This document shows, one piece after another, positions 20,735-63,052 of a DNA stretch of 64,000 bases. The DNA is taken from the NCBI GenBank assembly GCA_027317185.1, contig DAHVFB010000006.1, positions 593 to 64,592 on the forward strand, read 5' to 3'. Source of the DNA: Deltaproteobacteria bacterium (GTDB lineage Bacteria; Desulfobacterota; Binatia; Binatales; Binataceae). The translations under genes and the position numbers were made by a program. Position 1 is the first letter of the stretch; each line of letters opens with the position of its first letter. The notes beneath the pieces are model-generated. The model did not search any database, was not told the origin of the DNA, and saw nothing but the letters and a program-made list of their open reading frames with translations.

Positions 20735-20740
20735 AACGGA

Positions 20741-23695: not shown

Positions 23696-23734
23696 CTCGC
23701 GTCCGTCAATTTTGTACCGTTGATTTCTGGTCCG

Positions 23735-25714: not shown

Positions 25715-25785
25715 TTCCCCCTAAAGCCCGGCGCGAAATACGCCGCAACAAAATTCCAGGCCAACCATTCCTGCCGCCGCAATGC

Positions 25786-27872: not shown

Positions 27873-27949
27873 CCGGCACAGCGGTCTCCTTTCCCACTGC
27901 CACCCCGCCTCTTAGCCGGTGTGCCCGGGCGACGACGCCCGCCCCATAC

Positions 27950-46778: not shown

Positions 46779-46796
46779 TTATCGGGACGGAATTTC

Positions 46797-47576
46797 ATGC
46801 CTCAGGAAAGAACACTCGATCTATGGCACGGCCAGATTAAGCCAACCGTCAGGATTGCGGGCAGCGGCGCGCCGCTGGTTTTCCTGCATAGCTGGTTCGG
46901 ACCGGTGTGGGAGCCGTTTCTAGATCTGCTCGCCCGCGATTTCACCGTCTACGCGCCCTCTTTGCCCGGTACCGGACCCGGCGATGTCGACGGTATCAAG
47001 GCGCTCGACGATCTCTGGGATCTGGTCCTTTATCACTACGAATTATTTGATGCGCTCGGACTGAAATCGCCCGCGGTGGTTGGGCATTCTTTCGGCGGCA
47101 TGATCGCGGCGGAGGTTGCGGCGACCGATCCGACACGCGTCGGCAAGCTCGGCTTGTTAAGCCCGTTCGGACTGTGGCGCGATGATACGCCGATACCGCT
47201 GGTTTCCGCGATGCCGCCTCAGGAAATCGTCCGGCGTGTCTTTAACTCGGTGGACCATCCGGCAACCCGCTTGATGTTCCCAAATCGTAGCGACGTTGAT
47301 GCCGTCATTCGCGTCACCTGGGCGCAGAACTGCTCGAACAAGTTTATCTGGCCGATCCCGGATAAAGGCCTCAAGAAACGGATTCACCGCATCACGGCGC
47401 CCACGCTGGTGGTATGGGGTAAAAGCGACAATCTGATTCCGCCGGTGTACGCCGAAGAATTCAAAAGCCGTATCGGCAACGCACGCATCGAACTGGTCAA
47501 TCAGGCCTCGCATATGGCGCCGTTCGAGCGCCCCCAGGCAGTGGCGGACATCCTGGTAAAGTTTCTCAAGGGCTGA
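46797..47576 (+). CDS. alpha/beta-fold hydrolase
   Basis: Nucleophile elbow VGHSFGGMIA and HG oxyanion region (LVFLHSW). The C-terminal His region is ASHMAPFE. Confidence 0.85.
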   Translation: MPQERTLDLWHGQIKPTVRIAGSGAPLVFLHSWFGPVWEPFLDLLARDFTVYAPSLPGTGPGDVDGIKALDDLWDLVLYHYELFDALGLKSPAVVGHSFGGMIAAEVAATDPTRVGKLGLLSPFGLWRDDTPIPLVSAMPPQEIVRRVFNSVDHPATRLMFPNRSDVDAVIRVTWAQNCSNKFIWPIPDKGLKKRIHRITAPTLVVWGKSDNLIPPVYAEEFKSRIGNARIELVNQASHMAPFERPQAVADILVKFLKG

Positions 47577-47610: not shown

Positions 47611-50600
47611 TCATACCGGTGCCGGATGCTGTCCCGGATTTTGCTCGGGATTTTCTTTTTGATTCTGTTCAGAATGTCCGTCGTCTTTCCTTCGCGAATA
47701 GAAAAATTCATATACCGAGGGAACTACGAACAGTGTCATGAAGGTCGAGGCGGTAAGCCCACCGATTACCGCGCGCGCTAACGGCGCCGAGGCTTTCGAT
47801 CCACTCTCAAGCGCCAGTGCTACCGGCAACAAGCCCACCACTGTAGCAAGGGCGGTCATCAGGATTGGCCTCATCCTGATTCGCGCGGCCTCGACCACCG
47901 CTTTGCGCAAAGGCTCGCCGCTGTGCCGCCGCTGATTGGCGAAATCGATAAGCAAAATCGCATTCGAGATGACTATCCCGATCATCACGATAATGCCCAT
48001 CATCGATTCGATGTTCAGCGTGGTACCCGTCAACCAAAGAATCCAAACTACACCAATCAGTCCAAGCGGCACCGAGAACAGAAAGATCAAAGGATCGAGC
48101 CACGAACGCGATTGGGCAACGCCCACAAGGTAAACCACGACCAGCGCCAATAGGAAGCCGAATTTGAAGCTGCCGAAGGCCTTTTCCATCTTTTCGACTT
48201 CGCCACGATAATAAATGTGGATGTTCTTGGGCTGTTTGATCTTGTTCAATTTGGTCTTGATAGCTTCCAGCGTGCCCCCCAAATCCTCACCTTTGGGTTG
48301 AACCAAAATATCGACCACCCGTTGAATGTTGTAATGGTCCACCTCTGACGGAAGCTCCTGGTAGTCGATATGCGAGACATCGCGCAACAGCACCGATTGC
48401 CGATGCCCCGACCCGTCGATATCCATGGATGATTCGCTTGCTCGCGACAAATAGCTCGGAGCGGCATCGCGCATTCCGACCGGAATGTTCTCGAGTGTGT
48501 CGATCGACTTGATTTTCCTTTCGAGATACTGCGCGCTTAAATAGTAATCATCGCCAGTGACCGGATCGATCCAGATTGATGGCGATATCATCTCGTTGTT
48601 CACGATCGCGGTAATCAGGTTTTTCACAATCTCTTTCTCTGTAATCCCGAGACGCGCGGCTCGCTCACGGTCGACCGATATGTTCAGCGTCGGATACTTC
48701 GAAATCTGCTTGATCATGGTCTGACGCACCTGCGGCAGGTGATTGAGGTCATTTTCGACCTGCCGCGCAAAGGAAAACATCTGCGGGAAAGGTTCGCTCA
48801 GCGGCGAACTTATCTGTACATCGATCGGCGCAATCTGACCGAAATTAAGCATCGCATCGATAATGCTTCCCGAACTGAAAAATGCCCGAACTCCCGGCAT
48901 GTCAGTATTGAAAGCGGTGGCGATGCGGTCTTCATAGTATCTGGTGGGGTGATCGCGACTGGCGCCCAGCTCCACCATCATCTCGGCGGTATCCTCGCCG
49001 GAATTCTGGGTATAAATCGCTGGTATCTGCGGGATCACGCCGATGTTCGAAACGATAGTTTTCATCGCGCGCTTCGGCACCACCTGATGGACGATGTCGT
49101 TAAGCTTCTGAACCATTTTGGTGGTCAGCTCGATACGCGTGCCCTCGGGAGTCTGGACATGAATAATGAATTTGCCGCCTTCGGTGCGGGGGAACATGCG
49201 TGTACCGATGACGTCGAACAACAGCATCGAGAGTATAAAAAGCAGGCTGACTCCCCCCAGCACGAGGAGCTTGTGATCGAGCGTAACGGTGAGAGCCTGC
49301 GCAAAACGATCGGAAACCCGCTTGTACCAGCGGTTAAAGCCAGACAATAACTTTCCGAGCCATCCCTTTTGGCGACCCTCCTCCACTTCGCGCACCCGTT
49401 CCACCGAAAGAAAACGCGCGCAGTAAATAGGGATCACCGACATCGAGACCACGTATGACGCCGCCATCGCGAAGGTCACCGCCAGCGCGAGCGCGGTGAA
49501 CATGTACTTAGTCACTCCATAAAGGAAGACCACCGGCAGAAACACCACGATCGTACTGATGGTCGAAGCGAGTACCGCATAAGTCACCTCTTCGGCCCCT
49601 TCGCGCGCCGCATCCTTGGGCGCCTGACCCTCCGCCAGATGACGATTGATGTTTTCGAGCACCACCGTCGAATCGTCCACCAGCCGTCCAATCGCGAGCG
49701 TGAATCCGCCGAGGGTCATAATATTGATGGTTTCGCCAGAAACCCGCAGACCAATAATCCCGGCCATTATCGAAAGCGGAATCGATAGAAAGATAGCGAA
49801 GGTGGATCTCAAATCGCCTAGAAAAATCAGAATCATCAACGAGGCCAGAATCGCGCCCGAACCGGCTTCATGCTCAAGCGCGGCGATCGCGTTGCGCACA
49901 GTATCTTCCTGGCTGAAGATGGTGCTCACCTTGAGGCCGTGAGGCAGACCGGTAATGCCCGGAATCGCCTTTTTAACCCCATCGATGACGCTCAGCGTGT
50001 TCGCCCCGGTCTGTTTGAAAATGGGCACGTAAACCGATGGCTTATTGTCGATCAGCACCTCGTTGTATTGGATTTGCGATGCCTTTTCGGCATGCCCGAC
50101 ATCGTGCAAAAACACTGGCGCCTGACCTTTCCCGATTCGGATTGGAACATTGTCGAGGTTTTCGGGCTTGGGAATCATCGAATTGGTATAGACGTAGTAA
50201 TCGTAAGGTCCGATCTTGGCATCGCCGCCGGGCAAAATCTGATTGGTGCTATCGATCGATTTCACTACGTCGAGCAACGTGAGCCCCCGAGCCTGCAGCG
50301 CATCGCGGTCAACGTAGGCCATGATCTGCCGGATTTTGCCGCCGAAGGGATACGGCACTGACGCACCCTTAACCGTCGCCATAAAGTTACGAACGTTGTA
50401 ACGTGCCTGATTTTGCAACTCGGTCTGCCCGTATTTTCCGGAGACCGTGACCAGAATCAGAGGGACCGACGACGAAGCGTTATACTTTAGAACTAATGGC
50501 GGCAAAGTACCGGGCGGCATCAGTCCCAGATCGCCCATCGCGAGTGTCGCCAGATCGGCTGCGGAGGCGTCTAAATTCGCATTCTCATGAAAATATACGG

Positions 50601-50868
50601 TGACGAGACTCACCCCTGGAAGTGAACGGGATTCGATATGCTCAATGCCGCTGCCGAGCGTAAAAAATCGCTCGTATCGGCTGGTGATGTCCTGCTCCAT
50701 GCCGGTCGGCGGAAATCCCGGATAGAACGTGGCTACGACCGCGGCCTTGATGTACAGGCGCGGGAACACATCGACCGGCATCTGCGTGAAAGCGACGCCG
50801 CCCATTATCGCGACCAGCAGCGCAGCAACAATTACAGTGTGAGGGTTGCGCAGGGAAAAACTTGGCAT
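47611..50868 (-). CDS. RND-family efflux transporter permease (AcrB/HAE-like)
   Basis: 1085 aa with 12-TM RND architecture and two large periplasmic loops. N-terminus: RNPHTVIVAALLVAIMGGVAFTQMPVDVFP. Confidence 0.93.
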   Translation of the reverse strand: MPSFSLRNPHTVIVAALLVAIMGGVAFTQMPVDVFPRLYIKAAVVATFYPGFPPTGMEQDITSRYERFFTLGSGIEHIESRSLPGVSLVTVYFHENANLDASAADLATLAMGDLGLMPPGTLPPLVLKYNASSSVPLILVTVSGKYGQTELQNQARYNVRNFMATVKGASVPYPFGGKIRQIMAYVDRDALQARGLTLLDVVKSIDSTNQILPGGDAKIGPYDYYVYTNSMIPKPENLDNVPIRIGKGQAPVFLHDVGHAEKASQIQYNEVLIDNKPSVYVPIFKQTGANTLSVIDGVKKAIPGITGLPHGLKVSTIFSQEDTVRNAIAALEHEAGSGAILASLMILIFLGDLRSTFAIFLSIPLSIMAGIIGLRVSGETINIMTLGGFTLAIGRLVDDSTVVLENINRHLAEGQAPKDAAREGAEEVTYAVLASTISTIVVFLPVVFLYGVTKYMFTALALAVTFAMAASYVVSMSVIPIYCARFLSVERVREVEEGRQKGWLGKLLSGFNRWYKRVSDRFAQALTVTLDHKLLVLGGVSLLFILSMLLFDVIGTRMFPRTEGGKFIIHVQTPEGTRIELTTKMVQKLNDIVHQVVPKRAMKTIVSNIGVIPQIPAIYTQNSGEDTAEMMVELGASRDHPTRYYEDRIATAFNTDMPGVRAFFSSGSIIDAMLNFGQIAPIDVQISSPLSEPFPQMFSFARQVENDLNHLPQVRQTMIKQISKYPTLNISVDRERAARLGITEKEIVKNLITAIVNNEMISPSIWIDPVTGDDYYLSAQYLERKIKSIDTLENIPVGMRDAAPSYLSRASESSMDIDGSGHRQSVLLRDVSHIDYQELPSEVDHYNIQRVVDILVQPKGEDLGGTLEAIKTKLNKIKQPKNIHIYYRGEVEKMEKAFGSFKFGFLLALVVVYLVGVAQSRSWLDPLIFLFSVPLGLIGVVWILWLTGTTLNIESMMGIIVMIGIVISNAILLIDFANQRRHSGEPLRKAVVEAARIRMRPILMTALATVVGLLPVALALESGSKASAPLARAVIGGLTASTFMTLFVVPSVYEFFYSRRKDDGHSEQNQKENPEQNPGQHPAPV

Positions 50869-50963: not shown

Positions 50964-51268
50964 GATCATCCGCTGATGTGGCGTCATTTTTCGATCCAAT
51001 AAAAGGCCCGCAATATACGTTCCAACTTCCGCTCTTCCCGAAGGTTCCCCCAAAGCGGTATTGGTTATGCCGAAGCTGCTTCAATCGTGAGTGGCCTTGG
51101 GAAGACTGCGATAAAGTGCTTACGGATCGGATGTGCTATGCCGATAGAACGAGCACTGATTCAGAGCGGCGGCCGCATGGACTGCGTTGACACGCCTCAA
51201 TGAAAAAAGGCCACTCGGGGGGCGCGGCGCACCGGGCGACCTCCATAGCTAATCGGAGGACATTTTTT

Positions 51269-52837
51269 TTGAGCACAGCCAGCAGCGAGACGAAAAACGG
51301 CGTCCGCCCGTTTACCGGCGAACAATATCTGGAAAGCCTGCGCGACGGCCGCGAGGTCTGGATTTACGGTGAGCGGGTTAAGGACGTGACCACCCATCCA
51401 GCGTTTCGCAACGCGGCCCGAATGATCGCGCGCCTGTACGATGCGCTGCACGACCCGCAACAGCAGTCGGCTTTGACCATCGCGACCGATACCGGCAACG
51501 GCGGCTTCACGCACCGTTTTTTCCGAGTGGACCGCAACCCAGAGGAACTGCTCAAGACCCGCGATGCGATCGCGGAGTGGGCGCGCATCACCTATGGATG
51601 GATGGGCCGGTCGCCGGATTACAAGGCGAGTTTTCTCGGCACCCTCGGCGCGAACTCAGCCTATTACAAACCATTTGAGAGTAACGCGATTGAATGGTAC
51701 CGCCGCGCCCAGGAGCAATGCCTGTTCATGAACCATGCGATCGTCAATCCGCCGATCGATCGTTCCCGCCCGCCGGACGAAGTGGCCGACGTTTACGTCC
51801 GGGTTGAAAGGGAAACCGACGCCGGCCTGATCGCGAGCGGCGCCAAGGTGGTCGCCACCGGATCGGCGCTGACGAACTACAATTTCATCGGTTACAACGG
51901 CGTGACCCCGCTCGGCCGGCCCGATATGGCGCTGTTCGCGATGATCCCGATGGACAGCCCGGGGGTGAAGCTTATCTGCCGCACATCATATGAGATGACC
52001 GCGGAGACCATGGGCAGCCCGTTCGATTACCCGCTTTCGAGCCGCTTCGATGAAAACGACGCCATATTCATTCTGGATAAGGTGCTGATCCCGTGGGAGA
52101 ACGTATTCGTCTATCGCGACCTTGAACGCGCAAACCATTTCTTTCCGAAATCGGGCTTTGTTGCGCGCTTCGCGATACAGGGATGCACGCGTCTGGCGGT
52201 CAAACTCGACTTCATAATGGGCGTGCTGCTGAAGGCGGCCGAGGCCACCGGTCAGGATACGGTCAAATCGTCGCAGGTCTCGCTCGGCGAGATCATGGCC
52301 TGGCGATCGATGTTCTGGGCGCTGAGCGACGCCATGGCGCGGGCGTGCGAACCCTGGGTCGGCGACACGGTCTTGCCTAACACAATGTACGCAAGCTGCT
52401 ACCGGGTATTGGGCGCGGTCGCATATCCGCGTATCCGCCAATTGATCGAGCAGACCTATTCGAGCGCACTCATCTACTTGAACTCGCACGCGGCCGATTT
52501 CAAAAATCCCGAGCTGCGGCCATTGCTGGATCGTTATATCCGCGGATCGGCAGGTTACGATTCGGTGGAGCGGGTGAAGATACTGAAACTGCTGTGGGAT
52601 TCGATTGGCACCGAATTCGGCTCGCGGCATGAGCTGTATGAAATGAACTACGCCGGCAATCACGATACCACGCGGTTCGAGAATCTGATGCTGTCGATCG
52701 AACTTGGCAAGGCCGCCGAAGTGAAGGGACTGGTGGAGCGCTGCCTCGCCGAATATGACCTTGATGGCTGGCGCGCGAAAGACCTGATCAACGCCACCGA
52801 CATTAATCGCATCATGACCGAGGCGAAGCGCAAGTAG
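51269..52837 (+). CDS. HpaB-family (4-hydroxyphenylacetate/phenol) flavin-dependent aromatic hydroxylase, oxygenase component
   Basis: [44 protein letters not shown] is the HpaB N-terminal signature, with a full-length body. I prefer the TTG at 51269 (GGAGGA 9 nt upstream) over the ATG at 51200. Confidence 0.88.
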
Positions 52838-52883: not shown

Positions 52884-53786
52884 ATGATTACCGCCGTCAA
52901 GCAGCTTGGATATATCGGGCTCGGGGCCAGCAATTTGGAGGCATGGGAGCGCTATGCGGCCGAGATCCTGGGTCTTCAATTATGCGAACGCGGCTCCGAT
53001 GGAACCCTGTACTTCCGCATGGATGAGTTTCACCATCGAATTTCGGTCCATCCCGATCCCGCCGACGACTTGAAACTGCTCGGCTGGGAGGTGGCGGATC
53101 AAAGCGCGCTCGACCAGCTCGCTGCGCAGATCAAGGATTGGGGTACTGAGGTCCAGCATGGCACGCCCGCGGAGGCTGCGGAGCGCGCTGTCTATCGCCT
53201 GATCAAGTTCACGGACCCCAGCGGCATCGCATCCGAAGCGTACTATGGAGCCTTGAAGTACAACACCCCATTCAGATCGCCGCGGCCGATTTCAGGCTTC
53301 CTGACCGGAGAAGACTTCGGCATGGGTCACGTCGTGATCGCCGTCGACGACTTCGATCGAAGCGCCAGCTTTTACCAGGAAGCGCTCGGAATGAGGGTTA
53401 CCGATATCGCCACGCCCTCCGGCCAGCGCGCCGAGCGAATCGGGATCAGTTCGCACATGATCTTTTTGCATTGCAACCTGCGCCACCATTCAATTGCCTT
53501 CGGCTCGGGTAGCTATTCCAAGCGGCTTAATCACTTCCTGCTGCAGGTGCGTGACATCGACGATGTTGGCGCGACTTTCGATCTGTGCCTCGATCGCGAG
53601 GTGCCGCTGGTCTCATCGATCGGCAAGCATGCCAACGACCTGATGATCTCGTTCTACATGAAAACCCCATCGGGCTTCGGCTGCGAGTTTGGCTATGGCG
53701 GGCGCGAAGTGGACGATCGGACCTGGAAGGTGGTGATGAACCGGGTCACCAGCCTTTGGGGCCATCGAACGATCAACGCTCTGTAA
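52884..53786 (+). CDS. type I extradiol ring-cleavage dioxygenase (BphC/catechol 2,3-dioxygenase-like, two VOC modules)
   Basis: LGYIGLGASNLEAWERYAAEILGLQ; second module GMGHVVIAVDDFDRSASFYQEALGM. Size 300 aa. Confidence 0.85.
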   Translation: MITAVKQLGYIGLGASNLEAWERYAAEILGLQLCERGSDGTLYFRMDEFHHRISVHPDPADDLKLLGWEVADQSALDQLAAQIKDWGTEVQHGTPAEAAERAVYRLIKFTDPSGIASEAYYGALKYNTPFRSPRPISGFLTGEDFGMGHVVIAVDDFDRSASFYQEALGMRVTDIATPSGQRAERIGISSHMIFLHCNLRHHSIAFGSGSYSKRLNHFLLQVRDIDDVGATFDLCLDREVPLVSSIGKHANDLMISFYMKTPSGFGCEFGYGGREVDDRTWKVVMNRVTSLWGHRTINAL

Positions 53787-53851: not shown

Positions 53852-54091
53852 CTACGCCATGGGCGGCAGCACGATCGGGTAACGCTTAACCTCTTCCGGA
53901 TTCACGTTGAAGAACGGATCGCGTTTCGCCGGCGAAATCGATTCGGGCGGCTCGCTGTCGCGCCATGAGAACGAACACTGCTGGCAATGCAGCACGCTCC
54001 AGATCACCTGGCCCGCTTCCTTGCCCTGATATTGAGTTTCGGTCCGCTCGCCGCGGCATCGCGGACACGAGTTTGAAGTTGACGTGCTCAT
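53852..54091 (-). CDS. small subunit of a non-oxidative hydroxyarylic acid decarboxylase (VdcD/BsdD-like)
   Basis: CPRC...W.V.HCQQCSFSWRDSEPPESI...P.F pattern in 79 aa. ATGA overlap with the upstream UbiD-family gene. Confidence 0.72.
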   Translation of the reverse strand: MSTSTSNSCPRCRGERTETQYQGKEAGQVIWSVLHCQQCSFSWRDSEPPESISPAKRDPFFNVNPEEVKRYPIVLPPMA

Positions 54092-55722
54092 TGCGCCCCA
54101 TTCTCCTGCATCTTGCGGATTTGCCGCATCAGACGTTCGATATGCTCACCTGTTGGCCGGTTCACCATCTTCATATCGGGACCAACCGGGTCGGGCGCCA
54201 TAAAGCTGGTCGCATCGATGATTAGATGATGGCCTTTGCCGGGCACCTCGGCCGCCGGATCGATCGGCACCATCGGCATGTTCGGCATCACCATTATGTC
54301 GCTCGCGCGGGTACGTACCGAGATTGCCCACATCACCTGGTTCAAATCGAACGGGTCGACGTCGTCATCGACCATGATCAGGTTCTTCAGATACATCATG
54401 CCGTGCGGCGTGCTGAGCGCGCGCAACGCGACCGATTTCGCAAATCCGCCGTAGCGATTCTTGAGCGAGATGATTCCGGTTAGTCCATGATGATACAGAG
54501 CGTTGACCGCCTGAATTTCGGGAAACTGATCCTTCAAGACCGAATAGATTGGAACCGAGGTTGACAGTCCGATCAACGTATCGTGTTCGGTCCATCCCTT
54601 GCCGATGTAGATACTTTCGAAGATCGGGTCGCGCCGATGCGACACCGCTGTCACCTTAAACACCGGCGCGCGCCGCACCCCGCTATAGCTGCCGGGAAAC
54701 TCTCCGAACGGACCTTCGAGGATGCGCTCGCCGGTCATCAACTCCGCTTCGATCACGATTTCGGTGCCGGCCAGGATATCCAGCCCGTTGCCGGACTGGG
54801 TCAAGGTGATCGGTTGGCCCATCATCGCGGACGCATAGGCAAACTCACTTTCGTCGTACGCGAGCGGGGTCGCCGCGAACATCGCGATCGCGGGGTGATT
54901 ACCCAGCATCACGGAGATGCGGAACGGACGATTCTCCTTCTCCGCGATTAATATCTGGCGTCCGATGTCATGCGCCGGGATGGTCATCAGCGAAAACGTG
55001 TCGGGCGCATGAATCTGCAGGCGATAGATACCGACGTTCTGCTTGTTGAAATCCTCGGGGTCGCGTGGGTCGCGGCTTACCACCGCCGCCTTGCCGAGGT
55101 AGAAACCGCCGTCGAACTCGTTGATTCGGGTCAGCGGAATAAGGTCGTAGAGGTTGATCGCTTTCTCAATGCGGACCTCGTTAACCGGGGCGTCCTCCGG
55201 TTTGATCCAGTTGAGCTCCGGCTTGGCGCCCTTCGCACCCCAGCGCCGGGTCATCTCGAAAAACAGCTCTTTAATCGTGGCGGTCTTTGGATAGCCGAGC
55301 AGGAGCGCGATATTGGCCCACGTCGCATGCACGCCGATTATCAGCTTACGGCCCGGGTACCCGCGGATATTATCGAATAGGACGGCGGGACCGCCCCGCA
55401 CGTCGTTGCTGGCCGCCACCGCGATATGGCGAATATCCGGTTCCGGCATGACCGGTTCGGTCCACCTGATGCACTGCTGGTTGTCAGTCAGCAGTTGGAT
55501 GAAATCGCGCAACGAGCCGATTTGCCGGGCTTTTTTGGCCGGCACTGCGATCGAACTGCGCTGAACCCCATTGGGTATTTTTTCCGCGCTGCCGCGGGCG
55601 GGAATTTCCTCCACCGAACAATCCTCCCAGAAACGGTCCGGCGCCTGGCCGGGCTGGTTTGGCGTCAAATCTAACCTGCTATGCGCATTGATGTCGAGCA
55701 ACGCCTGCGATCTTCCGCGCAT
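54088..55722 (-). CDS. UbiD-family (prenyl-FMN-dependent) aromatic acid decarboxylase, VdcC-like
   Basis: LRDFIQLL...GGPAVLFDNIRGYPGRKLIIGVHATW and a full UbiD body. The ORF N-terminus is about 60 aa longer than usual. A GTG at 55545 (485 aa) is a plausible true start. Confidence 0.9.
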   Translation of the reverse strand: MRGRSQALLDINAHSRLDLTPNQPGQAPDRFWEDCSVEEIPARGSAEKIPNGVQRSSIAVPAKKARQIGSLRDFIQLLTDNQQCIRWTEPVMPEPDIRHIAVAASNDVRGGPAVLFDNIRGYPGRKLIIGVHATWANIALLLGYPKTATIKELFFEMTRRWGAKGAKPELNWIKPEDAPVNEVRIEKAINLYDLIPLTRINEFDGGFYLGKAAVVSRDPRDPEDFNKQNVGIYRLQIHAPDTFSLMTIPAHDIGRQILIAEKENRPFRISVMLGNHPAIAMFAATPLAYDESEFAYASAMMGQPITLTQSGNGLDILAGTEIVIEAELMTGERILEGPFGEFPGSYSGVRRAPVFKVTAVSHRRDPIFESIYIGKGWTEHDTLIGLSTSVPIYSVLKDQFPEIQAVNALYHHGLTGIISLKNRYGGFAKSVALRALSTPHGMMYLKNLIMVDDDVDPFDLNQVMWAISVRTRASDIMVMPNMPMVPIDPAAEVPGKGHHLIIDATSFMAPDPVGPDMKMVNRPTGEHIERLMRQIRKMQENGAQ

Positions 55723-55811
55723 GGACTAATTCAGCCAGTATTAACTTTGGAATTGCCTTGACACTGCTATATTCGTCTGGTCAATTCGGATTCAAATTGC
55801 GAGGAAAGTTT

Positions 55812-57077
55812 ATGAATGAAAACCTGACCAGAATGGGCGATTATTACGCGGCGGCGCTCGACGACGTCGAACTCACGCCCAAGACTCGCGCAATTCTGGC
55901 CGGGCTTGATCCGTCGGCGCAGGATCATAAGCAGGCCATCTCGTTGCCGCCCCAATGTTACACCTCGGAAGACTGGTTCGAGTTTGAAAAGCGCGCTGTC
56001 TTCGATCGCGATTGGGTCTGCGTCGGTCATTCGGGGTTGATTCCCAAGCCCGGCGATTTCCAGACCATCAACATGAACCATGACCCGTTGATCGTTTTGC
56101 GCGATCAGGCGGGTGTGGTGAAAGTGATGGCGGGCGTATGCGCCCATCGCGGACGCTTGGTCTGCGAGGGCGCCGGCAACACCGACAAGTTTGTCTGCCC
56201 GCTTCATCACTGGACTTATGATCTGAATGGACAACTTTTGGGCGCGCCGGAGATGAACTCGGTTCTGCCGCTGGCCGAGTTGCAGAAGCAGGCTTTCCTG
56301 CCGGTGCTACGCAGCGAGGTCTGGAATGGCTTCATCTTCGTCAATATGGACGGGCGGGCCATGCCGCTCGCGCCGCGGCTCAAGCGGCTGACCAAGGAGA
56401 TTGAAAACCATCACATCGGTGAGATGCTCGGCACGCCCACCTTCGATTTTCCTGATTACAACTGGAACTGGAAGTACATGCAGGAGAATGCGATCGAGCC
56501 GTATCACACCCATTATCTCCATCGTGGCATCCACGACCACGCGCCCTCGCGGCTGGCCTCGTTCGTCGAGTGGGACCCCGACGACGATGGCGCCGTGTTC
56601 CATCCGACCGGGTTCGTCGAACTCGACGGAAACTTCAATATGAGCTTTAAGTGCCTCTTCCCGGTGATTAAGACCTTGACCGAGAAGGAGCGCCAGCGCG
56701 TGATGTTCATCACGGTGCTGCCGAATCTGTTTATCGGGACGGTGCCGGATGGCGTGTTCTACTACATCATCCAGCCCCAGAGCGCGAACAAGATCGTTCT
56801 GCGGGTGGGCTTCCTATACCCCGAGGCCACGCTCGCGGACAAAAACTTCGATTACATCTTTAAGATGACGGTCGATGGACTGTGCACCTACAACGATCAG
56901 GACGTCGCGTCAAATGCCGGGGTCCACGTGGGACTTAAATCCCGTTTCGCCCCGCGCACCCGTTATGCGCCTAAAGAAAAAACCCTGTCGCAAATGAACC
57001 GATGGCTGGTGAAGCGCTACAAAGCCTACGCCACCGAGCTTGAGTCGCGCGATCGGGCTGCGGCAGCCGGCCGTTGA
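55812..57077 (+). CDS. Rieske [2Fe-2S] aromatic ring-hydroxylating/demethylating oxygenase, alpha subunit
   Basis: Rieske motif CAHRGRLVC...CPLHHW. Mononuclear iron region NAIEPYHTHYLH. ATG 55812 is preceded by GAGGAAAG. Confidence 0.88.
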   Translation: MNENLTRMGDYYAAALDDVELTPKTRAILAGLDPSAQDHKQAISLPPQCYTSEDWFEFEKRAVFDRDWVCVGHSGLIPKPGDFQTINMNHDPLIVLRDQAGVVKVMAGVCAHRGRLVCEGAGNTDKFVCPLHHWTYDLNGQLLGAPEMNSVLPLAELQKQAFLPVLRSEVWNGFIFVNMDGRAMPLAPRLKRLTKEIENHHIGEMLGTPTFDFPDYNWNWKYMQENAIEPYHTHYLHRGIHDHAPSRLASFVEWDPDDDGAVFHPTGFVELDGNFNMSFKCLFPVIKTLTEKERQRVMFITVLPNLFIGTVPDGVFYYIIQPQSANKIVLRVGFLYPEATLADKNFDYIFKMTVDGLCTYNDQDVASNAGVHVGLKSRFAPRTRYAPKEKTLSQMNRWLVKRYKAYATELESRDRAAAAGR

Positions 57078-57121
57078 TTGGAACCGATTGCTTGGTTGAG
57101 GGAGATGGATTGAGAAAATAG

Positions 57122-57877
57122 ATGAGTTCAGAAATTCAGGAATTGAAGGAACTACTGCTCGACCTCCGGCGCGATATTGGCCGCTTGCAGGATCTCGAAT
57201 CGATCAAGTATCTCATTACCTCCTATGCGCGGGGCTGCGACCGCGGCAACGATCCGGTGATGATCGCGCCGCTGTTCGCCGAAGATGGAATTTGGGAGAG
57301 CGCCGGCTTTGGCGCCTACCATGGCCGTCGGAACGTCGCCGCGGCGCTCAAGGGGATTGCGGGCGAAAAAATCTGGTGGTCGCTCCATTACATGATCTCG
57401 CCGCAGATCGAGCTTGATCCGTCGGGCCTTGGCGGCAAGGCTTTCTGGTATTTGTGGGAATCGGCCACCATACCCGATTCAGACACCAACAAGGCCGAGT
57501 CACATTGGATCGGCGGCACCTATGATGCCGAAGTGGTAAAGCGGGACGGCAAATGGCTGTTCAGCAAGATGGTCCTCAATCTCAACCTTGCCAGTCCGTA
57601 CAATGAGGGATGGGTCAATCAACGTTTTCCCAGGGGCAATGACCATCAGCCCTATTTCCGCGAACTGGAACCGGACAGCTATTTCTGGTGCGCTTGTGGC
57701 CGCTCGAAGAATCAACCATTCTGCGACGGATCGCACAAAGGCACCAATCATCGCCCGGTCGAATTGACGATCGAGAAACGCCAGATGGTCGTGCTGTGCG
57801 GATGCAAGCGAACTGGCACCGGCCCATTTTGCGACGGCACCCATCTCAACCTGAAACTCGACAATAAAGCTGATTAA
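57122..57877 (+). CDS. fusion protein: NTF2/SnoaL-like domain + two CDGSH-type iron-sulfur domains
   Basis: The N-terminal 170 aa has a SnoaL_4-like pattern (LQDLESIKYLITSYARGCDRGN...). The C-terminus has two motifs, CACGRSKNQPFCDGSH and CGCKRTGTGPFCDGTH. Confidence 0.85.
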   Translation: MSSEIQELKELLLDLRRDIGRLQDLESIKYLITSYARGCDRGNDPVMIAPLFAEDGIWESAGFGAYHGRRNVAAALKGIAGEKIWWSLHYMISPQIELDPSGLGGKAFWYLWESATIPDSDTNKAESHWIGGTYDAEVVKRDGKWLFSKMVLNLNLASPYNEGWVNQRFPRGNDHQPYFRELEPDSYFWCACGRSKNQPFCDGSHKGTNHRPVELTIEKRQMVVLCGCKRTGTGPFCDGTHLNLKLDNKAD

Positions 57878-57916
57878 ATCAAGTATAAGCGGTCTGCCAT
57901 TTCGGAGGGCTTAAGG

Positions 57917-58519
57917 ATGATTCACAGACGGCAATTACTGGCGGCCGGCGCGGGACTGGTGGTCATGACGCCACTGAAAATCCCGCTGACGTTTATTACC
58001 GGCGCGATCGGCTCGGCGGCTGCCAGCCCAGACGTATTGGCGGAAAGCGGGCTGGCTGGCTCGCTCGAATTGATCTCGGCGGCCCGGGAAAACGCCCGCG
58101 CCGCGCGCGTGAGCGACATCGACAGCACGATTCTTATCGGCCAATTATCCAAAGCATGGGCCAGGCATCCCCGCCCGTTGTTCGGGATGACGCGCAGCGA
58201 TGTCGCGGTGCTGGTCGAGGCGCTGGCGCGCGACCATGGAATGGCAGTGGTCTACCGCGGATGGCACGACCATCGCGCAGACGGCTCGGTCCATCACGTG
58301 CTGCATGGCGATGCGAAAGCCGTCGCGATGCTGAAACGGCAATTTAATTCCACCGGCAGTTTCGGAAAAATTCTGGGCGAGCAAATAACCGTTTTGACCG
58401 CATCCGGCGGCCGTCCGGAATCGGTTAATTTCGAGGTTGCCACCGGCCGCCAGCCATCGGGCAGAGCCCGTTTCGTTTCATGGGCGGTCGCCCCTGTCGA
58501 AACGGCCACGGCCATCTGA
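57917..58519 (+). CDS. hypothetical protein with a twin-arginine (Tat) signal peptide
   Basis: MIHRRQLLAAGAGLVVMTPL... has a Tat-type RRxLL motif and an h-region. No family recognised for the mature part. Confidence 0.55.
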   Translation: MIHRRQLLAAGAGLVVMTPLKIPLTFITGAIGSAAASPDVLAESGLAGSLELISAARENARAARVSDIDSTILIGQLSKAWARHPRPLFGMTRSDVAVLVEALARDHGMAVVYRGWHDHRADGSVHHVLHGDAKAVAMLKRQFNSTGSFGKILGEQITVLTASGGRPESVNFEVATGRQPSGRARFVSWAVAPVETATAI

Positions 58520-58561
58520 AATCACGGGCCCCGTGTATCGCACGATCGGAGAACCATCTAG

Positions 58562-60136
58562 ATGAATGCCAAACTTCCCAGGGGTGTATCCAAGGAGCAG
58601 TTCGCATCGGCGATGAACGCGATGCGAAAGGTGGTCGGCAACCAATGGGTAATCGTCGACGATAACCCGTTGATCGCCGGTTACATGGATACGTATTCAG
58701 CCGCTCCCGTCAGCTCCACCGCCGCCTCCGCCGCCGTCTGCCCCGCCAGCGTCGAGGAGGTGCAACAGATCGTCAAAATCGCGCATAGCCATCGGATTCC
58801 GATCTGGTCGATTGCGACCGGAAGAAACTTCGCCTATGGCGGCCCTGCGCCGCGCAGCGCCGGCCAGGTGGTGCTCGATTTGCGCCGGATGAACCGCGTA
58901 CTCGAAGTCAACACCGAGCTCGGCTACGCGATCGTCGAGCCGGGCGTCGGCTACGTTGATTTCTACAACTACATGCAAAAACACAAGCTGCCCTACTGGA
59001 TCGATTGCGCGGCCAATGGAATGGGCGGCGTGATGGGCAATACGCTTGATCATGGCGTCGGCTACACCGCCTACGGCGACCATCTGTTGATGCAATGCGG
59101 GATGGAAGTGGTGATGTCGGATGGCTCGCTGATGCGCACGGGGATGGGCGCGCTGCCCAACAGCACCTGCTTTCCGCTCTACAAGTATGGCTATGGCCCG
59201 TACATCGACGGCCTTTTTACCCAATCGAACTTCGGCGTGGTGACGAAAATCGGCTTGTGGCTGATGCCCGAGCCGCCCGCCTTCAAACCCTTCAAGGTGC
59301 AGTTCGAAAGCGAGGACGACCTTTACCAGGCGACCGAGCTGATGCTGCCGCTCAAGATCAATATGATCATTCCGAACGCGGCCATCACCACTCATCTGCT
59401 GTGGGAAGCGAGCCTCTTCACCACCAAGCACGAATGGAGCAGCGGCCCCGGCGCGTTGCCGCAAAGCACGCTGCGCCGCATCGCGGAAAAGTTCGACATC
59501 GGAATGTGGAATTTCTATGCCGCGCTTTACGGGATGCCTGAAGTGGTCGAGGAAAACTGGAAGCTGGTCGAGGCGACCTTCCAGAAGATCAAAGGCGCGA
59601 AAATCATTCTTGGCGAAGATCGCAAAGGCGATCCGAGCTTCGATTACCGCGCCCGGCTGATGCGCGGTGAGCCGAACCTGACCGAGTTCTCGCTGTTGAA
59701 CTGGGTCGGCGGCGGTGGCCATATCAACTTCTCGCCGATTTCTCCGGCCAGCGGCGACGACGCGATGAAGCAGTTCCACATGATTCGCCAGGTCTGCGAG
59801 AAATATGGCTTCGACTATATCGGCGAATTCGTGATCGGATGGCGCGAGCAGCATCACATCCTGATGCTGATGTTCAATCGCTACGACGCCGACGAAAGTA
59901 AGCGAGCTCATGATTGTTTCGCGCAGTTGATCGACGATGCGGCCGCGCAGGGCTACGGCGAGTACCGCACCAATCTGCATTTCATGGACGCGATCGCCGA
60001 GACCTACAATGCCAACGACGGCGCACTGCTGAAGATGCATCGGCGGGTAAAACGCGCGCTCGATCCGGCCGGGATTCTGGCGCCGGGCAAGAACGGCATC
60101 TGGCCCATTGGCGAAACCCCGGAGACCGAATCATGA
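58562..60136 (+). CDS. VAO/PCMH-family FAD flavoprotein, p-cresol methylhydroxylase (PchF)-like subunit
   Basis: FAD_binding_4 domain with the IATGRNFAYGGPAPR loop, plus a VAO-type cap domain. It is followed by a c-type cytochrome with an ATGA overlap. Confidence 0.88.
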   Translation: MNAKLPRGVSKEQFASAMNAMRKVVGNQWVIVDDNPLIAGYMDTYSAAPVSSTAASAAVCPASVEEVQQIVKIAHSHRIPIWSIATGRNFAYGGPAPRSAGQVVLDLRRMNRVLEVNTELGYAIVEPGVGYVDFYNYMQKHKLPYWIDCAANGMGGVMGNTLDHGVGYTAYGDHLLMQCGMEVVMSDGSLMRTGMGALPNSTCFPLYKYGYGPYIDGLFTQSNFGVVTKIGLWLMPEPPAFKPFKVQFESEDDLYQATELMLPLKINMIIPNAAITTHLLWEASLFTTKHEWSSGPGALPQSTLRRIAEKFDIGMWNFYAALYGMPEVVEENWKLVEATFQKIKGAKIILGEDRKGDPSFDYRARLMRGEPNLTEFSLLNWVGGGGHINFSPISPASGDDAMKQFHMIRQVCEKYGFDYIGEFVIGWREQHHILMLMFNRYDADESKRAHDCFAQLIDDAAAQGYGEYRTNLHFMDAIAETYNANDGALLKMHRRVKRALDPAGILAPGKNGIWPIGETPETES

Positions 60137-60495
60137 TCGTTCGTCGAACTCTTACCGCTGCGGCGCTGATCGCGATGATGATCGTGGGAACCGCGCATGC
60201 GGGTGATATGAAAAATTCGGTCAGCCATGGCGAGCAGATCTTTAATACGCAATGCATATTTTGCCACGGCCAGGGATTGGGTCATCCGGCCTGGCAGATG
60301 CTCGCGCTGAAGAAGGGCAAGGCCAAGGCGTATATCGTCGGCCGCACGGACCTCACCCCGCTCTATATCAAACACGTGGTGCGTAACGGGCTGATTGAGA
60401 TGCCACCGTTCAGGGTCAGCCAGATTTCGAATCCGGACCTCGACGCCCTGGCGCAGTACATAACCCATCCAGACGGCGCGCAAAGCGCAAAGTGA
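60133..60495 (+). CDS. monohaem c-type cytochrome (PchC-like subunit)
   Basis: Sec signal MIVRRTLTAAALIAMMIVGTAHA|GD. Haem motif CIFCH. Distal Met candidate in IEMPPF. Size 120 aa. Confidence 0.85.
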   Translation: MIVRRTLTAAALIAMMIVGTAHAGDMKNSVSHGEQIFNTQCIFCHGQGLGHPAWQMLALKKGKAKAYIVGRTDLTPLYIKHVVRNGLIEMPPFRVSQISNPDLDALAQYITHPDGAQSAK

Positions 60496-60508
60496 TCAGG
60501 AGATAACC

Positions 60509-62047
60509 GTGGCGACTGCTTTAGCTGCAAACTCCGACTCTCGGGCTATCACGCCGGCGCTTGATCAGATACGTGCGGCGCTTGGCGATAATTCGGTCAT
60601 CGCCGATCGTGCGAGCCTGGCGAAATACGTCGATTCGGGTTCGCTCGCCGGTCCCGATGCGCCGCTTCCGGGCGCAGCCGTGATGCCCACCAGCGTGGAG
60701 CATGTCCGCGCTTTGTTGGCGATCGCGACTCAGCATCGAATCGGGCTGTGGCCGTTGGTCGGATCCGGACCATTTGCCGCTTCCGCCGATCGCGCCGGAC
60801 AGCTCGTGGTGGTCGATCCGCAGCGCATGAACCGGATCCTTGAGGTCAACGAAAAATACGCGTACGCACTGGTGGAGCCTGGCGTCACTTACGCGCAGCT
60901 CCACGATCGACTGCGCGACGGCAATCCACCGCTATGGCTCGACTGCGCCTCGCAACCGTCCAGTTCGCCAGCCAGCGATTTTGTGAATCGCTCGTTCGGC
61001 TACACGCCGTACAACGATCACGTGATCATGCAATGCGGGCTTGAGGCGGTGCTGCCCGACGGATCCCTGGTGCGCACCGGAATGGGCGCGATGCCGAAAA
61101 GCTCGTCGTGGCAACTTTTCAAGTACGGCTACGGGCCATATACCGACGGCAGCTTCACTCAATCGAGCCTCGGGATCATGACCAAAATCGGCATCTGGCT
61201 GATGCCCGCCCCGCCCGCCTGCCAGCCTTTCATGATCACCATTCCGCGCGAGGAGGACCTTCACGCCGCGATCGACATTCTGAAGCCGCTCAAGATCACG
61301 ATGCTGATTCCGAATACCGTTGTGGTGTCGCACCTGCTCGACGACGCCGCCCTGAGCGCGCCGCGGAGTAAGTACGATTCCGGCAGTGGTCCGATTTCGG
61401 CCAGTGCAGCGGCAAAGATAGCCTCCGATACCAATCGCGGAATGTGGAACATTTATGGCGCTCTGTACGGGGTGCCACCGGGTATCGCGGTGGGCTGGAA
61501 AGTTATCCAGGATGCCTTCAGTAAAATCCCGAAGGCTGGCTTTTACACCAATGAGAATCGAAAAGACGATCCGGTTTTTGCCTATCGATCGCAACTGATG
61601 TGTGGCGTACCCGCGGCGCCGCCTTCGACAACTCGGCAATGGAACGCCGGTGGGCACGCCGAAATCTCCCAGGTGATACCGTTGACCGGCGCGCATGCAG
61701 CACGCGCATTTGACCTCGCGAAAGGGATCGCGCGAGAGCATAAGTTCGATTATCCATGCTCCTTTCAGGCCACCTGGCGCAGCGCGTTTCTGGCGGGCAC
61801 TATTCCGTTCGATCCGAACTCGGCCGATGATCGCAAGCGTGCGCAGGCTTGCGCCAAATCGATCGTCGAGCGGATGGCGAAATCCGGCTATGGAACGGTC
61901 GCGGCGCCGGCGGAGATTGCGGCAGAGGCGGCCTCAACCTATAGCGCGCATAACGGCGCATTTTGGAACATGCATCGCAAGCTGAAGGCGGAGTTCGATC
62001 CCCGCGATGTGCTCGCCTCTCCGTTTCCGCTCAGCAAACAGACCTGA
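60509..62047 (+). CDS. second VAO/PCMH-family flavoprotein paralog with a divergent FAD-loop
   Basis: Collinear with 58562..60136 (RMNRILEVN, ALVEPGVTY, IGIWLMPAPP, KITMLIPN). The GRNxxYGG loop is replaced by VGSGPFAAS. GTG start. Confidence 0.8.
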   Translation: MATALAANSDSRAITPALDQIRAALGDNSVIADRASLAKYVDSGSLAGPDAPLPGAAVMPTSVEHVRALLAIATQHRIGLWPLVGSGPFAASADRAGQLVVVDPQRMNRILEVNEKYAYALVEPGVTYAQLHDRLRDGNPPLWLDCASQPSSSPASDFVNRSFGYTPYNDHVIMQCGLEAVLPDGSLVRTGMGAMPKSSSWQLFKYGYGPYTDGSFTQSSLGIMTKIGIWLMPAPPACQPFMITIPREEDLHAAIDILKPLKITMLIPNTVVVSHLLDDAALSAPRSKYDSGSGPISASAAAKIASDTNRGMWNIYGALYGVPPGIAVGWKVIQDAFSKIPKAGFYTNENRKDDPVFAYRSQLMCGVPAAPPSTTRQWNAGGHAEISQVIPLTGAHAARAFDLAKGIAREHKFDYPCSFQATWRSAFLAGTIPFDPNSADDRKRAQACAKSIVERMAKSGYGTVAAPAEIAAEAASTYSAHNGAFWNMHRKLKAEFDPRDVLASPFPLSKQT

Positions 62048-62137
62048 AGAAGGGTGGTAGCGTAAGTCGATCGGAAACACCCAAACCGGAGCTGAGCGGC
62101 CGCCCGCGATAACCACAACCCATTCAATGGAGTATCG

Positions 62138-62266
62138 ATGAACACCGAAGCCCCCAACCTCAAAACCGTAGTCGGAATGATCGTGGTCACCGTCATCCTC
62201 GCTGGAGCGTTATCCTTCTTTCTGATCGGCCATTTCGCGCCTCCCACTTACATGATCTACGGTTGA
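62138..62266 (+). CDS. candidate 42-aa single-TM mini-protein
   Basis: My own translation: MNTEAPNLKTVVGMIVVTVILAGALSFFLIGHFAPPTYMIYG. GGAG lies 5 nt upstream of the ATG. It is below the ORF-track length cutoff. Confidence 0.45.
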   Translation: MNTEAPNLKTVVGMIVVTVILAGALSFFLIGHFAPPTYMIYG

Positions 62267-62356
62267 TCGTCGGTCGAGCCTGACCTCGACCACGCTTTCG
62301 CGATCTTCAAACACTGGCTGCCGGGCGGGCCGCCGTTCCTTGCGCGATTCGAGGGA

Positions 62357-63052
62357 TTAGTCCCGTTCAGATCCGCGCAGCCGGTCGATCACGCCCAGCA
62401 GATCACCCATCGATTGGATTACAAAGTCGGGCCGGAACTGATCGTTCTGCATGAGCCGGCTATAGGTGGCCGGTCCGGTTGTGACCGAAACAGCAGCGCC
62501 AAAACCGGCCTTTAACGCGGCGACCGTGTCGCGCGGCTCATCGCCCACATACATACAATCATCGGGCGCGACCGCGGCGCGCGCCGCAGCCTCACGCAGA
62601 CTCTCAGTTTTATCCAGCGCGGCCAGCGAAAAGTTGGTTTGCGTGATTACAAAGTCAAGATGCTCCGCCAGGCCGACCATCGCGAGCTTACGCAACAGCA
62701 GATCAGAATCGCCGGGACGGCTGGTCACGACGCCGGTGACATACGAGCGCCGCTTGATCTCGGCCAAGGTCTCAGTGACATGTGGCAGGATTTCCAGCCG
62801 CTCGGTGCCATCGATCTCGGTCAAAAAATAGGCGAAGGCGAGCTGCATATACTCGCGGCGCTGATGTCCGAGAACGCCAGGCCATAGGTCATCGCGACTC
62901 AGCGATTCGTGATAGCCCTCGCGAGAAAGGGGCGGCCCTCCCAGCGAATCGAGCGCGCGGCATAACGCGCTGTACAACGGTCCGTGAATATCGACCAGGG
63001 TTCCATCAAGATCGAAAAAAATTGCTTGTAATTTACGAACTCGCGAAATCAT
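62357..63052 (-). CDS. HAD-superfamily hydrolase (phosphoglycolate phosphatase-like, subfamily IA)
   Basis: Canonical motif I IFFDLDGTLVD, motif II VVTSR, and motifs III/IV K...YVGDEPRD. Confidence 0.85.
   Translation of the reverse strand: MISRVRKLQAIFFDLDGTLVDIHGPLYSALCRALDSLGGPPLSREGYHESLSRDDLWPGVLGHQRREYMQLAFAYFLTEIDGTERLEILPHVTETLAEIKRRSYVTGVVTSRPGDSDLLLRKLAMVGLAEHLDFVITQTNFSLAALDKTESLREAAARAAVAPDDCMYVGDEPRDTVAALKAGFGAAVSVTTGPATYSRLMQNDQFRPDFVIQSMGDLLGVIDRLRGSERD

Follow-up and report, generated by a model that had tools for sequence, protein, structure and literature searches.

Background

Electron-transfer partners are the basis on which Rieske oxygenases are classified and engineered and, to our knowledge, the systems described so far all use plant-type or Rieske-type ferredoxin domains. 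Bacterial proteins of the CDGSH type are widespread, and the surveys that we consulted assign them no physiological partner. Here we describe a gene pair in which the two come together. It lies in a stretch of 64,000 nucleotides from a member of the Binataceae (contig DAHVFB010000006.1 of assembly GCA_027317185.1; this whole 64-kb stretch is called the window throughout, and coordinates count from its first letter), and it consists of a gene for a Rieske oxygenase alpha subunit followed by a gene in which an NTF2-like (SnoaL_4) domain is fused to two CDGSH motifs. We give about even odds to the reading that the pair is a dedicated two-component oxygenase module whose NTF2-CDGSH member passes electrons to the Rieske centre and perhaps catalyses an acid-base step as well. 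The pair offers a concrete case of a possible NEET-type electron donor for an oxygenase, and of an oxygenase that may be physically coupled to a second catalytic domain.

Among Rieske oxygenases, CntA carries a bridging glutamate whose role as the inter-subunit electron bridge is experimentally supported (PMC7948474). Within the NTF2 superfold, the diarylpropane lyase LdpA is a homotrimer with a His-Asp acid-base dyad, a common catalytic theme of NTF2 dehydratases, and with oxyanion-hole tyrosines, and mutation of any of these residues inactivates the enzyme (PMC9942872). Tandem CDGSH proteins of type 6 are defined by two C-x-C-x2-(S/T)-x3-P-x-C-D-G-(S/A/T)-H motifs, and the solved protein of this type is a monomer with pseudo-dyad symmetry that holds one [2Fe-2S] cluster per motif (PMC3174974). 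The published fusion partners of CDGSH domains are Glu_synthase, DUF1271, Fer4_19, Ferritin-like and Rieske_2, and SnoaL/NTF2 is not listed among them (PMC3174974, PMC5859297). We found no description of an NTF2-CDGSH protein paired with a Rieske oxygenase in the literature that we searched or in the curated Pfam and NCBIfam models, which agrees with an earlier first-pass annotation of the window that was aware of none. The lone SnoaL match in this literature was an unrelated tautomerase. Source annotations of the fusion are generic ("CDGSH-type Zn-finger protein", "nuclear transport factor 2 family protein") and in one instance wrong ("glutamate synthase").

A conserved gene pair

The alpha gene occupies positions 55812 to 57077 of the forward strand (ATG at 55812, stop codon ending at 57077; 421 aa) and the fusion gene positions 57122 to 57877 of the same strand (251 aa). 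Both rest on the map of open reading frames (ORFs) and on Pfam, and the gene call made independently on the contig of the window (L071) places the alpha start and both gene boundaries identically, so that the gene order and the 44-nt gap given in the first-pass annotation stand. This spacer (57078 to 57121, forward strand) contains a purine-rich GAGGGAGATGG before the ATG of the second gene. Within the fusion, the SnoaL_4/NTF2 domain takes up residues 1-170 (57122 to 57631, forward strand; Pfam, PDB profile alignments and Foldseek) and the tandem CDGSH module residues 173-243 (57638 to 57850, forward strand; Pfam, profile matches to 3TBN and 6AVJ, and Foldseek).

The linkage of the two genes was surveyed with one genome per species, which gave 53 fused loci and 17 loci whose NTF2 relatives lack the CDGSH part. 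A Rieske alpha gene stands directly 5' of the fusion gene on the same strand in 50 of the 52 assessable loci (L009, cut by a contig end, was left out), at a gap of -4 to +408 nt, and the stop and start codons of the two genes overlap in at least nine loci. The two loci without an adjacent alpha (L011 and L040) both belong to one metagenome-assembled genome (MAG). Chance adjacency is ruled out by this linkage. The hosts are Binatia, Gammaproteobacteria, Alphaproteobacteria including cultured Novosphingobium, an actinobacterium and a planctomycete MAG, and the genome loci nearest to the window come from Candidatus Binataceae MAGs, at 81-83% amino-acid identity. Because cultured Novosphingobium strains carry the pair, both genetics and biochemistry are feasible. 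Among the 120 best-matching clusters at 90% identity, 111 have the SnoaL_4+CDGSH architecture (45-95% identity), and the fused family has a single representative in the 50%-identity library, which indicates one compact family.

The adjacent alpha is the orthologue of the window alpha in 47 loci (50-83% identity), and in three others (L010, L026 and L039) it belongs to another lineage (24-25% identity), indicating that the fusion is tied to Rieske alphas as such. The distance matrices of alpha and fusion correlate across 45 loci (r = 0.93, Mantel p about 0.001, species phylogeny not corrected for); alpha and fusion are co-inherited. The wider gene context varies: the pair is accompanied in Binatia and Gammaproteobacteria by a set of p-cresol methylhydroxylase (PCMH), cytochrome c and UbiD genes, in Novosphingobium by TauD, a PfkB-family kinase and an amidase (the latter in Rr 2-17), and elsewhere it adjoins VanA-type Rieske genes and LigB, with only the pair itself constant between lineages.

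Several loci hold further Rieske genes. A widespread metagenomic lineage (P0020, 44 contigs) has the pair beside three of them, two of VanA_C type and one of Aromatic_hydrox type, together with a LigB-type dioxygenase (L074:4463-8457). Some gammaproteobacterial loci have two different Rieske alphas around one NTF2-CDGSH gene (L026:6756-10744 and L039:8436-13551), and L026 also encodes an EthD-domain protein and the small family-less protein of an unfused triad that is described below.

The Rieske alpha subunit

The alpha protein matches the Pfam families Rieske (E 7e-18) and Ring_hydroxyl_A (E 2e-26), with the Rieske domain at residues 67-150 and the catalytic domain at residues 215-404. The Rieske motif C-x-H...C-x2-H (C110, H112, C129, H132), the bridging E229, the iron ligands H232 and H237, and D364, which is probably the third iron ligand, are all invariant in 26 homologues. 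Judged by these residues, the protein is a complete Rieske oxygenase alpha subunit, with all redox and iron ligands present. Its E229-x2-H232-x4-H237 stretch aligns with E205, H208 and H213 of CntA.

The AF2 model of the alpha subunit (pLDDT 88.5, pTM 0.91) has CntA chains (n = 14), Stc2 entries (n = 4) and the uncharacterised 3N0Q as its top 18 Foldseek matches, and the alpha3beta3 dioxygenases rank after these with E-values at least 100-fold worse. As modelled, the alpha subunit is nearest to the beta-less alpha3 enzymes CntA and Stc2. The best NCBIfam match is GbcA, at 114.7 bits far below the cut-off of 670, and the residue two before the bridging glutamate is Ala (N-A-I-E-P-Y-H), compared with the Tyr or Phe (Va) or Asn (Vb) of group V. 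The GbcA score and the Ala at this specificity position rule out a quaternary-amine enzyme of group V proper.

The tandem CDGSH module

The two complete CDGSH motifs reported in the first-pass annotation are both exact. Motif 1, CACGRSKNQPFCDGSH, covers residues 190-205 (57689-57736) and motif 2, CGCKRTGTGPFCDGTH, residues 226-241 (57797-57844); each has three Cys and one His, and Pfam finds two zf-CDGSH stretches in the fusion (E 2e-19). Both motifs follow the type-6 pattern and lie about 20 residues apart. The module matches the profiles of MmCISD from Magnetospirillum (3TBN, E 1e-23) and human CISD3/MiNT (6AVJ, E 7e-18), and in the Foldseek comparison it is 51% identical to 3TBN, with all ligands present. 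By motif and profile, the C-terminal part of the fusion is a MiNT/type-6 tandem-CDGSH module, and the complete ligand sets and the identity to the holo-protein 3TBN suggest that it would bind two redox-active [2Fe-2S] clusters.

Purifying selection on the CDGSH ligands is clear: the mean identity is 59%, and outside the sphingomonad clade every ligand is kept in each of the complete fused loci (46/46). Decay of motif 1 is confined to the sphingomonad clade (six loci) and was probably a single event, and motif 2 is kept throughout. Five of these six loci have a Rieske ferredoxin gene and the sixth (L047) ends at a contig edge; in the loci where no ferredoxin gene was found, the three Cys and one His of both motifs are complete without exception (38/38). 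This gradient is circumstantial evidence for a ferredoxin-like role of the CDGSH module that is partly dispensable beside a dedicated ferredoxin. Related CDGSH modules (43-47% identity) are fused to FAD_binding_6 and NAD_binding_1 reductase modules, and also to Fer2 and Rieske domains, and these fusions fit a general electron-transfer role of such modules.

The CDGSH-reductase fusions are P0248, P0257 and P0259, which together with P0247 make up a multi-CDGSH set (L084, L085); one multi-CDGSH protein combines four CDGSH domains with Fer2, guanylate cyclase and Rieske domains. CDGSH-FAD-NAD fusions were also sought beside Rieske genes, and the two contexts seen were gene-poor, eukaryote-like contigs that are uninformative on oxygenases.

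Another role for the clusters would be that of a [2Fe-2S] donor or repair factor for the oxygen-sensitive Rieske centre, with the NTF2 domain as a docking scaffold. At least some accounts describe NEET proteins as labile-cluster, cluster-transfer proteins, the linkage of the module to one specific Rieske protein is tight, and in some lineages the module coexists with a normal ferredoxin. We nevertheless consider this reading improbable. The NEET proteins with demonstrated cluster transfer are eukaryotic ones of class I, and such transfer is not known for bacterial tandem modules, a stoichiometric and translationally coupled partner would be unusual for a maturation factor, and the invariant, catalytic-type residues of the NTF2 pocket would be left unexplained.

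The NTF2 domain of the partner

Pfam assigns residues 21-150 of the fusion to SnoaL_4 (E 2e-18, 66.9-68.4 bits against a gathering cut-off of 24), in keeping with the SnoaL/NTF2 fold that had been read from the sequence. The further suggestion of the first-pass annotation, that the domain is like a dioxygenase beta subunit, did not hold up. Ring_hydroxyl_B (PF00866) gave no match to the domain even at E<=10, in a run in which the HcaF control reached 1e-50, and hhalign gave the family profile a probability of 0.4% against HcaF. The model of the fusion monomer is one confident rigid unit (pLDDT 94.4, pTM 0.88), and among its top 50 Foldseek matches in the PDB, which are led by LdpA, LinA and BaiE, there is no beta subunit. 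PDB profile searches with the NTF2 domain likewise returned LdpA (E 7e-12), BaiE (3e-11) and LinA (5e-9), and by profile and structure together the nearest relatives are these three and a putative scytalone dehydratase. The N-domain is beta-subunit-like only by the shared NTF2 superfold, and it groups with catalytic NTF2 enzymes.

These comparisons bear directly on the idea that the NTF2 domain is a divergent structural beta subunit that builds an alpha3beta3 hexamer, with a CDGSH tail of little consequence. The domain does share its superfold with Ring_hydroxyl_B, its gene is next to that of alpha, no canonical beta was found, and the nearest solved relatives are homotrimers: BaiE and LinA form homotrimers, as does LdpA, and there are single-chain relatives with three SnoaL_4 domains. 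Similarity to Ring_hydroxyl_B is nonetheless seen at no threshold, the alpha subunit has its nearest structural matches among beta-less alpha3 enzymes and has homologues that stand without the partner, and the CDGSH ligands are under purifying selection, all of which makes a structural beta subunit an unlikely explanation.

It is plausible, by analogy with the homotrimeric relatives of the domain, that a trimer of the partner could sit on the alpha3 ring. The triple-SnoaL_4 relatives are chains of 666-709 aa (P0269, P0288, P0296 and P0362; L083) that may be covalent trimers, and the only context obtained for them (that of P0269, on a 2.4-kb contig) is uninformative. Such chains are a hint that the NTF2 partner, too, may be trimeric.

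The NTF2 domain has a long N-terminal helix and invariant Y35, D40, N43, W86, H89, Y110, W112, Y134 and W145, conservation having been counted over 98 sequences of the family, unfused relatives included. In the HMM alignment Y35, D40, H89 and Y134 correspond to Tyr35, Asp40, His97 and Tyr147 of NaLdpA, and H89, D40 and Y35 are also aligned with H83, D35 and Y30 of BaiE (residues that we numbered ourselves from the alignment). Y35, D40, H89 and Y134 occur together in every family member counted, fused or unfused (98/98). The second catalytic motif of LdpA, Glu143, is not kept, and the family has Ile or Val in its place. Since the His-Asp dyad and the two tyrosines are kept, the pocket probably accommodates a phenolate or enolate and performs an acid-base step; from its residues, the domain looks like a working acid-base pocket and not an inert beta subunit.

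A working pocket would also be expected if the NTF2 domain were mainly a pathway enzyme (a dehydratase, lyase or isomerase) that acts on the product or substrate of the oxygenase, for instance in the re-aromatisation of a dihydrodiol or in the processing of phenols prone to form quinone methides. The oxygenase would then draw its electrons from an unlinked ferredoxin and reductase, and the CDGSH module would serve the NTF2 enzyme in redox control, sensing or stability. Its closest relatives (LdpA, BaiE, LinA and the putative scytalone dehydratase) are enzymes, the residues essential in LdpA are retained even in unfused family members, a Rieske ferredoxin lies beside the pair in 14 loci, alpha homologues without the partner exist, and the enzymes encoded around the pair in the window deal with para-substituted phenols, on which chemistry of the LdpA type also acts. 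Set against this are the loss of the Glu143 motif and the fact that no NTF2 enzyme of the LdpA/BaiE/LinA group is known to need a metal cluster. The near-obligate slot after a Rieske alpha, often with translational coupling, fits a subunit better, and the pair is kept across pathways as unlike as the aromatic, TauD/amidase and VanA/LigB clusters. We therefore regard a separate pathway enzyme as a somewhat doubtful explanation, albeit one to be taken seriously.

Electron supply to the oxygenase

Conventional redox partners were sought by tblastn with HcaF, HcaC and HcaD of E. coli and a Fer2-FAD-NAD reductase, with a reach of 10 kb at the surveyed loci. None of the 53 fused loci has an HcaF-like beta subunit or a reductase of FNR or GR type within this distance, and no ferredoxin was found in 38 loci from Binatia, Gammaproteobacteria and other MAGs. 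In the window, no match to HcaC, HcaD, HcaF or the Fer2-FAD-NAD reductase was obtained over the entire 64 kb (E<=1e-3), and Pfam detected no ferredoxin or reductase in the ORFs from about 10 to 64 kb, the first 10 kb or so being covered by tblastn only; the statement in the first-pass annotation that no such gene is nearby was correct.

The unfused NTF2 relatives show another arrangement. A Rieske ferredoxin gene follows the NTF2 gene directly in 7 of the 17 loci, and in five of these seven (L059-L062 and L069) a Fer2-FAD-NAD reductase comes after the ferredoxin. The slot of the ferredoxin gene is the position that the CDGSH module takes in the fusion. A recurrent triad consists of a distant Rieske alpha, a family-less protein of 115-125 aa and an unfused SnoaL_4 member of this NTF2 family (L054-L069, L076 and L077, e.g. 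L059:6890-11901), sometimes followed by the Rieske ferredoxin and the Fer2-FAD-NAD reductase. The triad is often accompanied by formamidase/amidase, FMO-like and permease genes, which hints at a nitrogen-compound substrate; NCBIfam placed no curated family above its cut-off on the triad or on the Novosphingobium neighbours.

How, then, does the mechanism put forward in the first-pass annotation fare, namely a beta-subunit-like partner that feeds the Rieske centre from its own clusters? The conserved pair, the complete tandem module and the lack of a canonical beta subunit or reductase at the loci speak for it, and the beta-like nature of the N-domain has to be given up. From what remains, we infer that the CDGSH clusters may deliver electrons to the oxygenase.

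Several observations weigh against this proposal. Homologues of the alpha subunit with 45-53% identity occur in Cohnella and Porticoccaceae without an NTF2-CDGSH neighbour; the members of this alpha lineage thus do not all need the partner for structural reasons. A divergent HcaC-like Rieske ferredoxin is encoded just upstream of alpha in 14 alphaproteobacterial and actinobacterial fused loci, which means that the CDGSH module is not needed there as the only carrier. Neither a ferredoxin nor a reductase lies near the unfused NTF2 gene in 10 of the 17 loci, so that the absence of these carriers is common and counts for little as evidence. No reductant for the CDGSH clusters was identified. Finally, clusters of NEET type usually have midpoint potentials of about 0 mV at neutral pH, compared with reported values of about -100 to -150 mV for the Rieske centres of oxygenases, and without tuning of the clusters electron transfer from one to the other may thus run uphill. 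Reduced flavins are able to reduce NEET-type clusters, and HpaB-type enzymes, one of which is encoded in the aromatic gene cluster of the window, depend on a flavin reductase; this is a possible flavin link to the CDGSH clusters, and a lead only.

A model for the pair

A dedicated two-component module, the reading that we favour, would work as follows. The alpha subunit would be a CntA-like, catalytically complete oxygenase of the beta-less alpha3 type with a bridging glutamate. Its partner would be a trimeric NTF2 (SnoaL_4) protein with a MiNT-type tandem-CDGSH module, and hence two [2Fe-2S] clusters, on each chain, and would dock on the alpha trimer. The CDGSH clusters would act as a ferredoxin-like relay that passes single electrons on to the Rieske centre, and these electrons would come from a reductant encoded elsewhere: a shared reductase, a Rieske ferredoxin in the loci that have one, or reduced flavin. 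The NTF2 pocket would bind a phenolate or enolate and perform an acid-base step on the substrate or product of the oxygenase. In the window, the pair heads a co-directional string with two flavoproteins of p-cresol-methylhydroxylase type and a cytochrome c.

A more specific form of this model is that the NTF2-CDGSH protein is a new, trimeric oxygenase component that replaces beta subunit and ferredoxin at once, its NEET clusters feeding the Rieske centre while its retained His-Asp/Tyr-Tyr pocket carries out a coupled acid-base step on the product. We put this forward tentatively, as a possibility that falls short of an even chance. If it is true, a defined enzymatic partner would be known for a bacterial CDGSH protein for the first time, and the pair would add a class to the electron-transfer systems of Rieske oxygenases.

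Gene neighbourhood in the window

In the window, the pair belongs to a catabolic cluster of phenolic or lignin-related type; the Binatia, in which this version is found, are a soil lineage that has not been cultured. The next co-directional gene is a 200-aa ORF (57917 to 58519, forward strand) with a twin-arginine-like N-terminus, MIHRRQLLAAGAG. It matched no Pfam or NCBIfam family, and in the comparison of loci it is kept only in those of Binataceae (L001, L003 and L004); the same slot in gammaproteobacterial loci holds a different ORF of 186 aa, also without a family. There follow, all on the forward strand and all assigned by Pfam, a first flavoprotein of PCMH/VAO type (58562-60136), a c-type cytochrome (60133-60495) that overlaps it by 4 nt, and a second, PCMH-like flavoprotein (60509-62047), which is a paralogue of the first with about 40% identity and has no FAD-oxidase_C match in Pfam. 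This trio is found downstream of the Rieske pair in about 25 loci of Binatia and Gammaproteobacteria.

Divergent from alpha, on the reverse strand, lie the hydroxyarylic acid decarboxylase genes VdcC/UbiD (54088-55722; NCBIfam VdcC, 656.6 bits against a cut-off of 650) and VdcD (53852-54091; NCBIfam, 71.8 bits against a cut-off of 30), and VdcCD is linked to the Rieske pair in Binatia and Gammaproteobacteria. No gene for a UbiX/VdcB prenyl-FMN synthase accompanies them in the 64-kb window, and directly 3' of the fusion gene two loci of Binataceae, L003 and L004, encode a further UbiD paralogue (30% identity). Further upstream, on the forward strand, are the oxygenase component of an HpaB-type phenol/4-hydroxyphenylacetate 3-hydroxylase (51200-52837) and an extradiol dioxygenase of BphC type (52884-53786), both assigned by Pfam and NCBIfam. 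The recognisable enzymes around the pair have para-substituted phenols as substrates, and with PCMH-type flavoproteins, cytochrome c, VdcCD, HpaB and the extradiol dioxygenase as neighbours, the pair would be part of a route for para-substituted phenolics. The operon structure of the pair and the downstream genes rests on short gaps and overlaps, and a scan of 55400-62600 for promoters and terminators gave counts at the level of shuffled sequence and was uninformative.

In the stretches 45507-47576 and 47611-50868, an RND (ACR_tran) transporter borders the aromatic cluster, with a luciferase-like monooxygenase and an alpha/beta hydrolase upstream of it; the hydrolase may act on a meta-cleavage product. 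A hopanoid/isoprenoid cluster on the reverse strand (19361-28954) encodes an HpnE-like amine oxidase, two squalene/phytoene synthase paralogues, a DXP reductoisomerase, a squalene-hopene cyclase, a polyprenyl synthetase and a radical-SAM protein with DUF3463 (HpnH-like).

Comparison with known systems

The pair resembles four groups of described proteins, each in part. With CntA, GbcA and Stc2 ("group V"; PMC7948474) the alpha subunit shares the best Foldseek matches of its model, the E-x2-H-x4-H motif with bridging glutamate, the lack of a canonical beta subunit and, in GbcA, its top NCBIfam match. These enzymes differ in that they use a separate FMN/[2Fe-2S] reductase (CntB, GbcB) and have no NTF2/CDGSH partner, whereas here the GbcA score is 114.7 against 670, an Ala replaces the Tyr, Phe or Asn two before the glutamate, and the gene context is aromatic and not one of quaternary amines.

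The alpha3beta3 dioxygenases (HcaEFCD and those of naphthalene and biphenyl) are similar in having a gene of the NTF2 superfold next after alpha and, as the pair does in some lineages, an HcaC-like Rieske ferredoxin alongside. The second protein here is not a Ring_hydroxyl_B protein, however, and has a pair of CDGSH motifs; the cluster lacks a reductase gene, and the bridging residue is Glu where theirs is Asp.

The closest relatives of the N-domain are the diarylpropane lyase LdpA (8ABT, 8ABU and 8ABV), the bile-acid 7-alpha-dehydratase BaiE and the dehydrochlorinase LinA, with which it has in common the His-Asp dyad and the tyrosines equivalent to Tyr35 and Tyr147, and, in the case of LdpA, the long N-terminal helix and a C-terminal "GW" segment. 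The identity is only 21-24%, the Glu143 motif of LdpA is missing here, and none of the three has an iron-sulfur domain or a link to a Rieske oxygenase.

The tandem CDGSH proteins of type 6/class II (MmCISD, 3TBN; CISD3/MiNT, 6AVJ; PMC3174974, PMC5859297) are known as free-standing proteins, some 80-130 aa long, to which no enzymatic partner is assigned; the module of the fusion, by contrast, is joined to an NTF2 domain, and it shares with them the two motifs about 20 residues apart, 51% identity to 3TBN and the full set of ligands.

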